NCBI GenBank assembly: GCA_963771275.1
Contig: CAVYSW010000003.1
Coordinates: 224,001 to 288,000, forward strand
Length of the DNA stretch: 64,000 nucleotides
Source: an uncultured Gemmatimonadales bacterium
GTDB taxonomy: Bacteria; Gemmatimonadota; Gemmatimonadetes; Gemmatimonadales; GWC2-71-9
Reading direction: 5' to 3'
Each line of letters starts with the position of its first letter. The stretch's first letter is position 1. Positions 30,327 to 36,055 of this stretch are shown here, in pieces. Position numbers and translations under genes: made by a program. The notes under the pieces are model-generated. The model worked only from the letters and a program-made list of their open reading frames with translations, was not told where the DNA came from and made no database searches.

Positions 30327-30869
30327 TCAGTGCCCCCGCAACTGCAGGTAGTCCAGCTCGACCGTCGTGGGGCGTCCGAACAGGCTCACGCTCACCCGCA
30401 CCTTCCCCTTGTCCGTGAGCACCTCTTCCACCGTGCCGCTGAAATCGGTGAACGGCCCTTCCATGATCTCCACGACCTGGCCCACGAGGAACGGGATCTC
30501 CTCGCGGGGCGCCGTCTCCGCCGCCGGCTCCACGATGCCGAGCAGCCGGTTGACCTCGTCCTGGCGCAGCGGCTGAGGCGTCCACCCCTGACCCACGAAC
30601 TTGATGACGCCCTGCAGGCTGTTGATGATATGGAGCGACTCCTGGGTCATGACCATCTCGACCAGCACGTACCCGGGATAGCGCTTCCGCTCAACCTGGA
30701 CCTTCTTGCCGTTCTTGATCTCGATCACCTGCTCCGTCGGGACCAGCGCCTGCCGAATGAGCCGGTCCTCCGGCGCCTTCGGATCCTGGTCGATCCGGCG
30801 CTGGATCAGCGAGCGGACCTTGTTCTCATGGCCCGCCGTCGTCTGAATCGCGTACCACCGCGCCTCCAT
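30327..30869 (-). CDS. nusG: Transcription termination/antitermination factor NusG
   Basis: [29 protein letters not shown] (KOW); alternative GTG start at 30884. Confidence 0.96.
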
Positions 30870-30880
30870 GCCGACCTCGA

Positions 30881-31138
30881 TCACCGCAGTGCACGGCCCA
30901 GGAGATCGATCAACACCCACGACGAGATCAGGTCCATCAGGCCGATGATCAGGCCGATGACGATCACGAACACGATGATCACGATCGTGGTCCGCCGCAG
31001 GTCGTCCCACGTGGGCCACGTGACCTTGTCGACCTCCGCGCGCACCTCGCGGACGTACGTCACGACCCGCTGCAGGAACCCGCCGACCCGGCGGGCAAGC
31101 CCCGTGCGCTCCTCAGCCCCCGTCGCCACGACCGCCAC
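30881..31138 (-). CDS. secE: Preprotein translocase subunit SecE
   Basis: EVRAEVDKVTWP followed by one TM helix; lies between rpmG and nusG. Confidence 0.92.
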   Translation of the reverse strand: MAVVATGAEERTGLARRVGGFLQRVVTYVREVRAEVDKVTWPTWDDLRRTTIVIIVFVIVIGLIIGLMDLISSWVLIDLLGRALR

Positions 31139-31139
31139 C

Positions 31140-31292
31140 TTACTTGGATTCCTTGTGGGGCTTGTACGTCCCACAGCGCGGGCAGAACTTCTTCCACTCG
31201 ACGCGCTCCGGGTGCTTCCGCCGGTTCTTCGTCGTGAAGTAGTTCCGACTCTTGCAGTCGGTGCATTCCATGATGATGTTCTCACGCGGCAT
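31140..31292 (-). CDS. rpmG: 50S ribosomal protein L33 (zinc-binding form)
   Basis: Not in ORF track. Manual translation: [50 protein letters not shown]. Confidence 0.95.
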
Positions 31293-31355
31293 ACGCGCCT
31301 CTCGCTGATCGGGGCCGCGCCGCGGCGCCGCCCCCCTGCTCCCGACTCACCCCAG

Positions 31356-31427
31356 AGCTCGCGATGGGGATTGAACCCATGGCCTCGTCCTTACCAAGGA
31401 CGCGCTCTACCACTGAGCTACGCGAGC
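31356..31427 (-). tRNA. tRNA-Thr(GGT)
   Basis: Cloverleaf GCTCGCG/CGCGAGC; anticodon loop TTGGTAA; GGTTCAATCC; CCA not encoded. Confidence 0.95.
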
Positions 31428-31432
31428 CTCTA

Positions 31433-31505
31433 AGCGGGCGACGGGACTCGAACCCGCGACCCTCAGCTTGGAAGGCTGATGCTCTACCAACTGAGCTACA
31501 CCCGC
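31433..31505 (-). tRNA. tRNA-Gly(TCC)
   Basis: GCGGGTG/CGCCCGC acceptor stem; loop CTTCCAA; GGTTCGAGTCC. Confidence 0.95.
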
Positions 31506-31568
31506 GGAGCCTGGCCCCACCGTCTGCCCCGATTACCAGACGTCGCGCTCCCGGGCGCGGCGCCCACA

Positions 31569-31651
<83 letters not shown>

Positions 31652-31736
31652 CTGCCCGCGCCAGTCCGCTCAGCAGACCACCCCGCAGGCAACGCGGGGT
31701 GGCCGTGCGCGCAGGACGAGCGCCTGCCTCGCATGC

Positions 31737-31812
31737 TGGAGCTGACGAAGGGACTCGAACCCTTAACCTGCTGATTACAAATCAGCTGCTCTGCCAGTTG
31801 AGCTACGTCAGC
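31737..31812 (-). tRNA. tRNA-Thr(TGT)
   Basis: GCTGACG/CGTCAGC acceptor stem; loop TTTGTAA; CCA encoded. Confidence 0.95.
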
Positions 31813-31886: not shown

Positions 31887-33428
31887 TTACGCGCCCCCCG
31901 CCTCCCTGCTCCCCGGTCCCGACCGCACCCGCCAGCGCGTCCCCTGCGGGGTGTCCTCCAGCTCGACCCCGCGCGCCGCGAGCTCGTCGCGAATCGCGTC
32001 CGCCCGGGCGAAGTCCCGCGCCTGCCGCGCGGCGCGGCGTTCCTCGACCTTGTCCGCCACCCAGCCCGCCAGCGCCGCATCGACAGCCGTCCCCTCCCCA
32101 GCAGTCGCCAGATCCGCCGACAGCTGCCCGGACCCGGACGGCCCTGCGCTGCTCGTGCCGCTGAGCACCCGGGGCACGACGTCCAGCAACTGCAGGATCG
32201 GATCGAGGACCCCCAGGGCCGCGGCTGCCTGCACCGGCGTCCACGCGCCCTCGTCCAGCACCCGGTTGGCCGCTCGGGCAAACGTGAACAGGGCCGCAAG
32301 TCCTTTGGGCGTATTGAGATCGTCGTCCAGGGCCGCGCGGAACTCGCGCTCCAGCTCGATCGCCTGCGACGGTGCGGGCCCGGGCCCGGAGGCGCCAGCC
32401 GCCGTCTCGAGCAGCCGGTCCCGCAGCATGCCCAGCCGCCGCGCTCCCTCCTCCGCGCCCCGGAGCGCGTCGTCCGTGTAATTCAGCTCCTGACGGTAGT
32501 GGGTGGAGCAGACGAGCAGGCGGAAGGCGGCCGGATCCACGCCTTCCTCACGCAGATCCCGCACGGTGAGGATGTTGCCGAACCGCTTGGACATCTTGGT
32601 CCCATGCACGGTGAGGAACTCCCCGTGCAGCCACACCCGGGCGAAGGTCGCCCCCGTCGCCCCCTCCGACTGCGCAATCTCGTTCTCGTGATGGGGGAAC
32701 ACGAGGTCCTTGCCCCCCGCGTGGATATCGAGCGTCTCGATGCCAAACCGGGTGCGGATTTCGCTGAGGGACATCGCCGAGCATTCCAGATGCCACCCCG
32801 GGCGGCCGCGCCCAAACGGGGCGTCCCACGCGGCGCCCACCGCCTCATCCACGGAGCCCGCGGCCTTCCACAGCGCGAAATCCCGCGCCTCCTCCTTGTC
32901 GTATTCGTCGCTAGCGACGCGGGCCCCCGCTTTCAGCTCCCGCGTGTCGAGCCGCGAGAGGCGGCCGTAGGTCGGAAACGCGCGCACGGCGAAGTACACC
33001 GACCCGTCCTCGCCGCGATAGGCCAGCCGTCGCTCGAGCAGCCGCTCCACCAGCGCCGTCATCGGGCCGATGTAGTCGGTGGCCCGTGGGTAGACATCGG
33101 CGGGCCGGATGCGCAGGAAATCCCGGTCCTCGAAGAACGCCCTGGTGTACCGCTCGGTGAAGTCCCGGATCGCCATGCCCTCCGCCGCGGCCGCCTTGAT
33201 GATGCGGTCGTCCACGTCGGTCAGGTTCATGATCAGGAAGACTTCGTACCCGACGTACTCGAGGTAGCGGCGCAGGATGTCGCCGACGAGGAAGGTCCGG
33301 AAGTTCCCGACGTGCGCGTAGTTCCACACGGTGGGGCCGCACATGTACATCGTGACCCGCGGCGGCGCGAGTGGCGCGAACGGCTCGACCCGGCGCGTGA
33401 GCGTGTTGAACAGGGCAAGCCCGCTCAT
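31887..33428 (-). CDS. cysS: Cysteine--tRNA ligase
   Basis: CGPTV..HVGN, DFALWK, GRPGWHLECS, FPHHENE; KMSKR in place of KMSKS. Confidence 0.97.
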   Translation of the reverse strand: MSGLALFNTLTRRVEPFAPLAPPRVTMYMCGPTVWNYAHVGNFRTFLVGDILRRYLEYVGYEVFLIMNLTDVDDRIIKAAAAEGMAIRDFTERYTRAFFEDRDFLRIRPADVYPRATDYIGPMTALVERLLERRLAYRGEDGSVYFAVRAFPTYGRLSRLDTRELKAGARVASDEYDKEEARDFALWKAAGSVDEAVGAAWDAPFGRGRPGWHLECSAMSLSEIRTRFGIETLDIHAGGKDLVFPHHENEIAQSEGATGATFARVWLHGEFLTVHGTKMSKRFGNILTVRDLREEGVDPAAFRLLVCSTHYRQELNYTDDALRGAEEGARRLGMLRDRLLETAAGASGPGPAPSQAIELEREFRAALDDDLNTPKGLAALFTFARAANRVLDEGAWTPVQAAAALGVLDPILQLLDVVPRVLSGTSSAGPSGSGQLSADLATAGEGTAVDAALAGWVADKVEERRAARQARDFARADAIRDELAARGVELEDTPQGTRWRVRSGPGSREAGGA

Positions 33429-33583: not shown

Positions 33584-34366
33584 TCACTTCTTGTCGGGGC
33601 CGTCGTCCTCTTCCACCAGCTCCGCGTCGTGGATCGGCTCGCTCCCGGCCGTGCCGGCGGAGAGCTGCTGCGGCGCTTTCGTCTCCCCCGCACCCAGCAG
33701 TCCCATCTTCTGCTTCAGCTCCAGCAGCCGCTGATCGGCGGATCCGTGGTACTCGAGCGCCGCGAACTCCTGCTGCAACGTGTCGCCGCTCAACTCCCCG
33801 GCGAGCTCGGCGGCCGCCAGGGCCTGGCGCTCCATATCGTCGATCTTCTCCTCCATCCGCGCGAACGTGTCGAACGCGCTCTGGTCACTCATCGAGTGCA
33901 TCGTCTGCTGGATGCGCTGCTGGGCCTCGGCGCGCTTCTGCCGGGCAACCAGGACGTTCTTCTTGCGCTTCAGCTCTTCGATCCGGTCGTTCATCTGGCG
34001 GAGGGAGCCCTTCAGGTTCTCCGTGTCCGCCTTGTGGCGCACCCAGGTCTCGTGGAGCTGCGTCGCGTTCTGCACGTGCTCCGACTGCCGCATGAGGGCC
34101 TGCTTGGCGAGATCGTCGCGCCCTTCCTGGACCGCCAGCATCGCGCGCCGCTCCCAATCCTCTGCCTGCTTCTTCTCGCGCTCCGATTGCGCCTGGAGCT
34201 TCTTCTCGTCGGCGATCGCCCCGGCCACGTCCTGCTTGGTCTTCGCAAGCTGGGTCCGCGCGTCGATCAGGGACTGCTCGAGGACCTTGGAGGGGTCCTC
34301 GGCGCGGCCGATGAGCGCGTTGATGTTCGCTTTGATCACAGTCATCAAGCGCTGGAAGATCCCCAT
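33584..34366 (-). CDS. pspA: PspA/IM30 family protein
   Basis: MGIFQRLMTVIKANIN..AEDP amphipathic N-terminus; WERRAMLA..GRDDLAKQAL; FARMEEKI; coiled coil. Confidence 0.93.
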   Translation of the reverse strand: MGIFQRLMTVIKANINALIGRAEDPSKVLEQSLIDARTQLAKTKQDVAGAIADEKKLQAQSEREKKQAEDWERRAMLAVQEGRDDLAKQALMRQSEHVQNATQLHETWVRHKADTENLKGSLRQMNDRIEELKRKKNVLVARQKRAEAQQRIQQTMHSMSDQSAFDTFARMEEKIDDMERQALAAAELAGELSGDTLQQEFAALEYHGSADQRLLELKQKMGLLGAGETKAPQQLSAGTAGSEPIHDAELVEEDDGPDKK

Positions 34367-34512
34367 GGCTCCCCTACGCCTCCCGCGCCAGCCCTGTTCC
34401 GGCCGCGCGTCTCACAACGGGTTGAGTACTGCGACCGGCCGGGCGCTGCCCGGCGCTCCATTGGCCTGCTGGAAGATCGGCATCGGCACGCCTTTACGCC
34501 ACCGGCCGGGCG

Positions 34513-34806
34513 CTAGCGGGCCGCCGGGCTCCCGTCCGGCGGCAGGACCCCCTGCCGCTGCTGGGCCAGAAGGCGCTCAGCGAAATCCAGCCGCTCGTGC
34601 ACCTCCGCGACATCCTGGCGCAGCTCCTCCATCTCGTCCATCACCGCCTGGTTGGAGGCCTCGAGCCGCTGGACCACCTCGTCCGACGTGACCGCCTTGC
34701 CCTGAATCCGCGCAGCGAAGGCTCGACCCACCGGGGAGATCGCGAGCAAGAACAGCGTCCCGCCACCGAAGATGAACGTGATTGCGAGAATGCCTTCCAT
34801 ATCCAT
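34513..34806 (-). CDS. Small single-TM coiled-coil protein (paralog 5)
   Basis: N-terminal hydrophobic helix; EVHERLDFAERLL. Confidence 0.85.
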   Translation of the reverse strand: MDMEGILAITFIFGGGTLFLLAISPVGRAFAARIQGKAVTSDEVVQRLEASNQAVMDEMEELRQDVAEVHERLDFAERLLAQQRQGVLPPDGSPAAR

Positions 34807-34809
34807 GCC

Positions 34810-35109
34810 TCAATGCTCTCCTTCGATCAGGGGGCGCTGGGCGTGCTGCGCCAGCATGCGCTCGGCGAATTCCAGGCGCTCCTCCAGCTCCTCCCAGCGG
34901 TACGTCTTCCCTTCGAGCTGCTCGATCCGCTGCTGCAACCGCTGCAACTCCTCGCCGACCCCCGGCCCAGCCTCACCGAGGCGAGCGTCGTGCCGCCGGT
35001 CGAGGAACTTGTTCGCGATCCGGTAGATCCCGAACAGGACGAACCCGCCCATCCCCATGCCGATGATGGGGAACACGACATTCTGGACCCACACCCAGTC
35101 GCTGAACAC
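34810..35109 (-). CDS. Small single-TM coiled-coil protein (paralog 4)
   Basis: GTG 35109 just after the stop of paralog 3; TM helix; ELEERLEFAERML. Confidence 0.85.
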   Translation of the reverse strand: MFSDWVWVQNVVFPIIGMGMGGFVLFGIYRIANKFLDRRHDARLGEAGPGVGEELQRLQQRIEQLEGKTYRWEELEERLEFAERMLAQHAQRPLIEGEH

Positions 35110-35110
35110 C

Positions 35111-35380
35111 TCACGAGCCTCCGGGAAGTCCCTCGCGCCGCTGCTGCGCCAGCAGCCGCTCGGCAAAGTCCACCCGCTCTTCGAGCTCCGCCACCCGATC
35201 GACCATGGTCCCCAGTGCCTCCACCTCACCGCGCAGCCGTTCCAGCTCTTCGGCGGATGCCCCGCTCCCTACCTGGCGCCGGTCGATCCAGCGGACGATC
35301 AGCTTGTACGTCACCACCAGGAACACGATCCCGGTGGCCATCCCACCGAACGGTACGAGGAATACCCAGTCAGGGGGCAC
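35111..35380 (-). CDS. Small single-TM coiled-coil protein (paralog 3)
   Basis: TM helix; ELEERVDFAERLL. Confidence 0.85.
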   Translation of the reverse strand: MPPDWVFLVPFGGMATGIVFLVVTYKLIVRWIDRRQVGSGASAEELERLRGEVEALGTMVDRVAELEERVDFAERLLAQQRREGLPGGS

Positions 35381-35654
35381 GGGAGCCTCCGGACGGGCCC
35401 AAGTCGCCGTGCTCGCGTGCCCGGGTCAGCATCCGCTCCGTGAAGTCCTGACGCTCCTCGAGCTCGGCCAGGCGCTGCTTCAGGTTGTCGAGCTCGAGCA
35501 GGGCCTCCGCGGCGATGTCCGCGCTGCGCCCGTCGGGGGGCAGGCCGCGCCGGGCGATGCGATCCGCCAGGGCCCGGCCGAGCGGGCCGCGCAGGATCAC
35601 CGCGCCGGCGATGCCCAGGATCGCCACGACCGGAACGAGAACGTCCGGCCCCAT
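35370..35654 (-). CDS. Small single-TM coiled-coil protein (paralog 2)
   Basis: TM helix; ELEERQDFTERML. Confidence 0.85.
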   Translation of the reverse strand: MGPDVLVPVVAILGIAGAVILRGPLGRALADRIARRGLPPDGRSADIAAEALLELDNLKQRLAELEERQDFTERMLTRAREHGDLGPSGGSRAP

Positions 35655-35655
35655 G

Positions 35656-35973
35656 CTACTCGCCCCCCCGCTCGATCCGCTCCGGCTCCTTGCGGGCGGT
35701 CAGCACCCGCTCCGCAAAGTCCAGCCGCTCGTGCAGCTCCATGACCTCGGCGCTGAGCTGCCGAACGGTCTGTCGCAGCTCCTGCGTGGCCTGCCCGTCG
35801 GCGGGGACCTGGACGGTCCACCGTCGCACCAGCCCGCGCACGAGCGTCCACAGGATCCCCATGCCCCCGACCGACGCCACCACGATCACGACCGCGATCG
35901 CGATGTTGACCGGGTCCGGGCCCTGATGAACGATGAAGTCCGGCAACTGCGGCGGTGCGGGGACCTGCTGCAT
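35656..35973 (-). CDS. Small single-TM coiled-coil protein (paralog 1)
   Basis: GGAGG RBS; TM helix; ELHERLDFAERVL. Confidence 0.85.
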   Translation of the reverse strand: MQQVPAPPQLPDFIVHQGPDPVNIAIAVVIVVASVGGMGILWTLVRGLVRRWTVQVPADGQATQELRQTVRQLSAEVMELHERLDFAERVLTARKEPERIERGGE

Positions 35974-36055
35974 GCGTCATTCCTCCGTCGTCCGAGACCC
36001 CCTACGTCCACTGTTTCAAAAAGTGTCGCTCGCGCGGGAAAAGTAAAGGCGTGGG

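Follow-up and report, generated by a model that had tools for sequence, protein, structure and literature searches.

How is PspA brought to the membrane in Gemmatimonadales, and are the small proteins encoded in a row before its gene its partners there? PspA/IM30/Vipp1 proteins are bacterial relatives of ESCRT-III that repair membranes, and to our knowledge the recruitment of this family to the membrane is understood in only a few lineages. We analyzed a 64,000-nucleotide (nt) stretch of DNA from an uncultured Gemmatimonadales bacterium (the window; contig CAVYSW010000003.1, assembly GCA_963771275.1, genome completeness of 96.7%, window G+C content of ~69%) in which five short open reading frames (ORFs; P1 to P5, 89 to 105 amino acids [aa]) and then pspA lie on the minus strand between uvrA and cysS. 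On balance, we think that P1 to P5 are single-pass membrane proteins expressed with PspA and are its membrane-embedded partners in Gemmatimonadales; such partners are probably the lineage's own and so far undescribed.

The initial annotation of this DNA described five consecutive ORFs of this size, abutting or overlapping, before a pspA on the same strand, and both the coordinates and the match to PF04012 agree with that description. The PspA product matched PF04012 over profile positions 1 to 217 of 220 (E value of 1.4e-47; 162.6 bits against a cut-off of 33.9), which passes the curated cut-off, and was the only match in the genome, making pspA a single-copy gene. The array genes are packed closely, with spacers of 1 nt between P1 and P2, 1 nt between P3 and P4, and 3 nt between P4 and P5 and an 11-nt overlap of P2 and P3, and a GGAGG-like ribosome-binding site lies ahead of every array start. 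The mechanically called ORF of P4 reaches position 35229, overlapping P3 by 119 nt; because homologues show a 99-aa form, we adopted that form for P4.

Aligned with one another, P1 to P5 share 28 to 33% identity, and the invariant residues cluster near the C terminus (E79, E82, R83, F86, E88, R89, and L91 in P1 numbering). Across 125 family members, E68, E71, R72, D74, F75, E77, R78, and L80 (P5 numbering) are invariant or nearly so, and one juxtamembrane arginine is invariant as well. The shared block, E-x2-E-R-x-D-F-x-E-R-x-L, stands at the end of the cytoplasmic helix; the transmembrane (TM) and juxtamembrane parts diverge strongly between paralogs. A profile built from the five proteins alone retrieved four further paralogs in the genome (E values of 3e-13 to 1.5e-8), and P1 and P5 matched each other by BLASTP with an E value of 8e-8. 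The similarity is beyond chance, and P1 to P5 are genuine paralogs belonging to a single family.

An AlphaFold2 model of P5, built from 51 aligned sequences, had a mean predicted local distance difference test score (pLDDT) of 77.5 and contained three helices: a TM helix (residues 3 to 23), a short helix (25 to 36), and a long helix (41 to 86) whose middle reached a pLDDT of 91 to 95. The sequences show short acidic N termini and clusters of arginine and lysine right behind the TM segment. Because basic residues follow the TM segment, the positive-inside rule predicts a topology with the N terminus outside and the C terminus inside. The conserved positions are spread over all faces of the long helix, and the helix therefore probably packs against other helices or partners. 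No related solved structure was found; the family profile matched only generic coiled coils (E values of 0.31 and 0.5). From the letters alone, each protein had been assigned an N-terminal TM helix, a coiled coil, and, despite strong divergence elsewhere, a shared motif; the alignment supports the motif, and the sequences and the P5 model support a single TM helix followed by a long helix in the cytoplasm.

We then asked how closely these proteins are tied to pspA. Sixty genomes of the phylum were sampled for the small proteins. These were present in each of the 27 that belong to the window's own family (17 genera), with 4 to 16 copies per genome, in 4 of 10 genomes from a second family of the order, and in 3 of 4 from other families of the class; none of the 19 genomes from the remainder of the phylum had them. 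PspA itself was present in 41/41 sampled genomes of the class. Within the window's family, all 27 genomes had their main array (2 to 11 tandem copies at an E value of ≤1e-3) directly upstream of pspA on the same strand, with pspA taken as the only or best-matching copy. With the window included (28 genomes), pspA-linked arrays hold 141 copies, compared with 265 genome-wide matches in the same genomes; the thresholds of the two counts differ, and about half of the copies lie in ~0.1% of the genome.

The reverse test gave a similar picture. Of the best 80 loci retrieved by means of the small protein in genomes of other species, 53 contained pspA, which in each case lay downstream of the small-protein genes and shared their strand; the arrays reached 13 copies. 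A further 6 loci were arrays cut by the end of a contig or locus. Array position and strand before pspA were constant in 28/28 genomes and 53/53 loci. The co-location with pspA that the initial annotation had proposed to score with a profile of the five proteins is thus seen in all 27 family genomes and in 53 of 80 loci. The linkage is tight and recurrent, but about half of the copies, among them a three-gene array and a TM2 fusion in the source genome, are found elsewhere.

At loci without an intervening gene of the CesT type described below, pspA began 0 to 30 nt after the end of the array in 14 of 25 cases (window included) and no more than 192 nt after it in any. Gaps of 0 to 30 nt argue for one transcript in those genomes; in the source genome, with its gap of 146 nt, the array and pspA may be cotranscribed. 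We found no sigma-70-like promoter at the locus, including the P5-pspA gap and the interval at 35974 to 36055, and no sigma-54 consensus at ≤2 mismatches between 33300 and 36300. The gap contains no convincing terminator; two terminator-like matches lie inside genes, a number equal to that expected from shuffled sequence. The gap also folds no better than shuffles (z score of 0.54). It holds two direct repeats. One, of 16 nt (34351 to 34366 and 34468 to 34483; 88%), copies the first 16 nt of pspA 117 nt upstream, where the copy opens a short ORF beginning MPIFQQ (pspA itself begins MGIFQR); the other (34431 to 34454 and 34498 to 34521) is G+C rich, 24 nt long, and 83% identical.

The spacing in relatives brought a third gene into view. 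The other families of the class have, ahead of pspA, a gene for a 129- to 148-aa protein of the CesT_Tir_1/YbjN kind (PF22550; E value of 5.5e-26), and this gene usually follows uvrA. This CesT-like gene lies between array and pspA in 11 of 27 genomes of the window's family and is missing there in the other 16; it adjoins pspA in 43 of the 53 pspA-bearing loci retrieved through the small protein and is missing in 10. It was absent from the window and from the source genome (best tblastn E value of 0.42), and no CesT/Tir gene adjoins pspA in the window. The usual operon accordingly reads array, CesT/YbjN-like gene, pspA, with the window as a reduced form that has lost the middle gene. The repeats in the P5-pspA gap may be the scar of that loss or may reflect a partial duplication. 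Two genomes of sister families carry one weak relative of the small proteins (E values of 6e-4 and 2e-3) before a CesT-pspA pair. The outline of PspB-like, PspA-linked proteins given at the start holds, but it has to be widened to a three-part operon that includes the CesT-like gene of relatives. Outside the window's family, a common neighborhood consists of uvrA, the CesT/YbjN-like gene, pspA, and an AI-2E family transporter gene (loci L012 to L022); the gene after pspA is cysS in the window and the transporter gene in other families of the class.

We next compared the proteins with known Psp components. P3 gave the best PspB score of the five, with an E value of 6.1e-4 and 20.2 bits against PF06667 (cut-off of 25.6) and an E value of 2.1e-5 and 24.7 bits against TIGR02976 (cut-off of 51.7); P1 matched TIGR02976 with an E value of 0.045, and single-sequence scans returned subthreshold PspB matches for P3, P1, and P4. 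Over the family, TIGR02976 was the NCBIfam model matched by the largest number of members (14/125 at an E value of ≤0.01; best E value of 7.6e-6), and PF06667 ranked second in Pfam (9/125; best E value of 1.9e-4). When all six frames of the genome were scanned with TIGR02976, P3 came first (E value of 1e-3), and five of the nine matches at an E value of ≤10 were family members, none of them over the cut-off.

Profile-profile comparison pointed the same way. PspB was represented by an alignment of 106 diverse sequences from a library of 50%-identity representatives, in which 279 PspB representatives were found at an E value of ≤0.001. Aligned by hhalign, the family and PspB matched with 83.5% probability (P value of 8.3e-6) over 62 columns, TM on TM and motif on motif. 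Among the PspB residues compared (P19, W21, Y26, R56, L60, E61, L64, D65, W71, and R72 in E. coli numbering), the invariant R56 and E61 fell on the invariant R83 and E88 and L64 fell on L91 (P1 numbering), and P19 fell on a proline present in 91 of 123 members (P25 of P5). When the soluble PspB columns were shuffled with the TM segment kept, none of 100 shuffles reached the real score (34.5, compared with a maximum of 22.5); when only the soluble parts were compared, none of 99 did (22.2, compared with a maximum of 16.2). The proteins also have the PspB architecture, an N-terminal TM helix and a helical cytoplasmic domain in ~75 to 100 aa. These comparisons suggest that the likeness to PspB is real but weak and support PspB as the nearest described family. 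No match to PspC was found at an E value of ≤1 in the 96.7%-complete genome, and no PspF-type gene lies nearby: of 11 strong matches to sigma-54 activators in the genome (E value of ≤1e-64), none is in the window. The earlier statement that the window holds no recognizable pspC or pspF therefore stands.

The arrays do not keep a fixed order of paralogs. The P5 type alone can be clearly recognized in most arrays (best blastp identity of 39 to 59%, and at least 47% in 21 of 27 arrays), and even its position within the array varies; other members match at 26 to 62% identity in no fixed order. We therefore discarded the notion of a constant paralog order. By these comparisons, an array consists of one core member accompanied by duplicates that change from array to array, not of five fixed subunits, which weakens the idea of a defined five-part form of the hetero-oligomer that the initial annotation considered possible. 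The varying duplicates fit a variable membrane part joined to a constant cytoplasmic helix.

To see how far the family extends, we searched a collection of 5.8 billion proteins with the profile of P1 to P5 (E value of ≤0.001; clusters at 90% identity). At least 7,264 clusters matched (7,264 of 8,000 scored candidates). Among the 120 matches listed, names were "hypothetical," stray automatic names, or none, and a Pfam domain was absent in all but one (PF08954); this is a large family without a Pfam model or a name. The ESM Atlas returned unnamed Gemmatimonadota clusters alone, and the best 80 loci in species-representative genomes all came from metagenome-assembled genomes of Gemmatimonadota, Gemmatimonadales, or Gemmatimonadaceae.

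The source genome has nine copies: P1 to P5, a tandem trio, and a 144-aa TM2 fusion. In the fusion (C3:1521407-1521673; locus L011, 7399 to 7833; minus strand), a TM2 domain (PF05154; E value of 6.5e-19) replaces the single TM helix, and TM2 fusions to the family helix recur in three further loci (L085, L090, and L115). The C-terminal helix thus also occurs attached to a different kind of membrane anchor and behaves as a portable module next to the membrane. The trio lies on contig C9 (50236 to 51077; locus L010, 7225 to 8090; minus strand), far from pspA. Before the trio comes a hydrophobic ORF of 114 aa, probably a membrane protein, without a Pfam match, and the trio's neighbors, judged from translations alone, are ORFs resembling penicillin acylase (before) and a DinB-type protein (after). 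Elsewhere, a 187-aa ORF (L095:9578-10141; minus strand) joins a LiaF-like_C domain of the "Toastrack" type (PF09922; E value of 1e-5, below the cut-off) to the family helix; we give this fusion no weight, as no full-length match occurred in 81 genomes of the order. Longer or fused forms were likewise set aside as fusion evidence: 12 were found, and those joining two small proteins, a small protein and CesT, or a small protein and PspA were singletons, one with a frameshift-like junction, and were treated as gene-call artifacts.

Coordinates of the array and of the genes around it are collected in Table 1. On the 3′ side of cysS, positions 30327 to 31812 hold an ordinary housekeeping cluster made up of four tRNA genes, a 50-aa zinc-ribbon-like ORF that is possibly ribosomal protein L33, and nusG (TIGR00922; E value of 1e-51).

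TABLE 1 Features of the pspA locus, in window positions
Feature	Position	Strand	Description
P1	35656-35973	-	105 aa, ATG start; array member farthest from pspA; longer N-terminal tail, one TM helix; motif ELHERLDFAERVL
P2	35370-35654	-	94 aa, ATG start; one TM helix; motif ELEERQDFTERML
P3	35111-35380	-	89 aa, GTG start; motif ELEERVDFAERLL
P4	34810-35109	-	99 aa, GTG start; motif ELEERLEFAERML
P5	34513-34806	-	97 aa, ATG start; conserved "core" type (ILAITFIFGGG...SPVGRA); motif EVHERLDFAERLL
P5-pspA gap	34367-34512	-	146 nt, same strand; two short direct repeats
pspA	33584-34366	-	PspA/IM30, ESCRT-III-like; 260 aa; PF04012
uvrA stop to P1 start	35974-36055	-	82 nt; presumed array promoter region
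uvrA	from 36056 upward		NF001503, 1454 bits
cysS	31887-33428		TIGR00435, 449.5 bits
tRNA genes	31355-31812	-	four genes (Thr, Gly, Tyr, Thr)

In the reading that we favor, the five proteins would sit in the inner membrane with the N terminus outside and the long helix in the cytoplasm, would be produced together with PspA, and would act as its membrane partners, as PspB and PspC do in Proteobacteria and LiaI does in Bacillus. The variable part would lie in the membrane and perhaps read it; the constant helix would contact PspA (the docking that the initial annotation proposed), the CesT/YbjN-like protein, or other array members. For PspA residues 1 to 225 paired with P5 residues 26 to 97, each supplied as an alignment, a complex prediction returned scores of 0.29 and 0.01, where the mark was 0.32; it counts neither for nor against such a contact. 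Going further, the array might be a bank of membrane-stress receptors with variable TM and juxtamembrane segments and a constant helix, possibly forming mixed coiled-coil oligomers that hold or nucleate PspA with or without the CesT-like chaperone. We advance this extension tentatively and with doubt; if true, it would amount to a form of PspA recruitment that needs neither PspC nor PspF and evolves through copy number (2 to 13).

Several observations weigh against a partnership with PspA or against the comparison with PspB that helps to suggest it. Roughly half of all copies lie away from pspA, including four of the nine in the source genome, and 21 of the 80 small-protein loci have neither pspA nor an array cut by a contig or locus end, 19 of them being single orphans and several being TM2 fusions. 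The sampled genomes are relatives, and their gene order partly reflects descent. In the window, 146 nt separate P5 from pspA and the CesT-like gene of the usual operon is missing. On the PspB side, all scores from hidden Markov models (HMMs) fall under the curated cut-offs; the PspB residues W21, Y26, L60, D65, W71, and R72 have no counterpart in the family; the soluble parts alone give a probability of only 38% in hhalign, where a score of 21.5 is reached even by PspB in reverse; matches to TIGR02976 at the loose threshold (E value of ≤10) occur in 13 of 14 control genomes as well; and unrelated coiled-coil models do about as well, with THOC7 matching 20 of 125 members and NF009344 reaching an E value of 1.2e-5. 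Because the HMM scores are below the curated cut-offs, we leave the proteins outside the PspB family. The label "PspB-like" from the initial annotation is apt insofar as PspB is the nearest described family, but it denotes resemblance rather than membership; we take the family to be probably related to PspB at a distance or closely analogous to it in structure, outside PspB as defined.

The copies away from pspA would be accommodated if the proteins were small envelope-stress membrane proteins made with PspA but acting beside it, for example by forming submembrane coiled-coil assemblies or by binding the CesT/YbjN-like protein alone. The conserved operon position is compatible with this, and conserved residues on all faces of the helix fit helix-helix packing among paralogs. 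It is also the CesT-like gene, not the array, that adjoins pspA in most relatives (43/53 loci). The array nevertheless stays before pspA where the CesT-like gene is missing, in 10 of those 53 loci, in 16 of 27 loci of the window's family, and in the window, and a role tied to PspA is what the resemblance to PspB suggests. We regard an action beside PspA as fairly unlikely.

Shared ancestry could also have preserved the gene order without any functional coupling, the family then being small membrane proteins that expanded in this lineage and serve some unrelated purpose. The carriers all belong to one order and thus do not count as independent cases; orphan copies occur, as does a second array whose neighboring ORFs are unrelated (identified from translations alone); and the similarity to PspB is subthreshold. 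We find this account quite unlikely, since the number and content of array genes vary freely (2 to 13 copies) while place and strand are fixed in 28/28 and 53/53 cases, gaps to pspA are often 0 to 30 nt, and one weak relative occupies the corresponding position in sister families. Finally, small single-pass proteins in variable tandem arrays beside a membrane-repair gene would be expected if they disturbed the membrane in the manner of holins or toxins and the adjacent PspA countered the damage. The invariant part is, however, the cytoplasmic helix and not the membrane segment; the 25 Pfam and 19 NCBIfam families listed for the 125 members include no holin or toxin family; and copies far from pspA have no obvious antidote gene. 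We consider a holin- or toxin-like role very improbable.

A partnership with PspA thus remains the reading that we prefer, and the locus appears to represent a new, lineage-specific variant of the Psp system. Gemmatimonadales, which are common soil bacteria, would have their own conserved solution, a PspB-like array, usually with a CesT-like gene, before pspA. The family offers a defined, invariant helix of 17 residues for the question of PspA binding, and its natural series of 2 to 13 paralogs offers a route to what the membrane segments sense. We found no relevant paper on the Psp system or PspA in Gemmatimonadota/Gemmatimonadetes. Neither Popp et al. 2022 (PMC9239133) nor Ravi et al. 2024 (PMC11237479) mentions the phylum in the main text, nor does one supplement of the latter; the web tables and other supplements of the two papers may list such neighborhoods.

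Three known arrangements invite comparison. In Bacillus subtilis, LiaI is encoded directly upstream of LiaH and is a membrane anchor, though not a single-pass protein. The LiaI-LiaH pair resembles the Gemmatimonadales locus in having a small membrane protein followed by a PspA homologue and in the proposed anchor role; it differs in that no sequence likeness was seen and no Lia family occurs among the 25 Pfam and 19 NCBIfam families listed for the 125 members. Passages of Ravi et al. (PMC11237479) name LiaI as a small TM protein. They also already describe a CesT/Tir-PspA pair, to which the CesT_Tir_1/YbjN-like gene directly before pspA in relatives of the source organism corresponds; an array of small membrane proteins ahead of the pair goes unmentioned in those passages.

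The closest comparison is with PspB, described in parts of the same paper (PMC11237479) as an N-terminal TM anchor with a helical cytoplasmic domain that is duplicated in some operons, occurs in a divergent form fused to PspC, and is rare outside Proteobacteria. Like PspB, the proteins of this family are small, are anchored by a single TM helix at the N terminus with a helical portion in the cytoplasm, and are encoded in the pspA operon. They lack the PxWLxLHY and C-terminal WR signatures of PspB, and no PspC was found in the source genome and no PspF-type gene near the locus. PspB accounts for 279 clusters at 50% identity, compared with at least 7,264 at 90% identity for the new family, whose genes stand upstream of pspA rather than downstream, in arrays of 2 to 13 copies.

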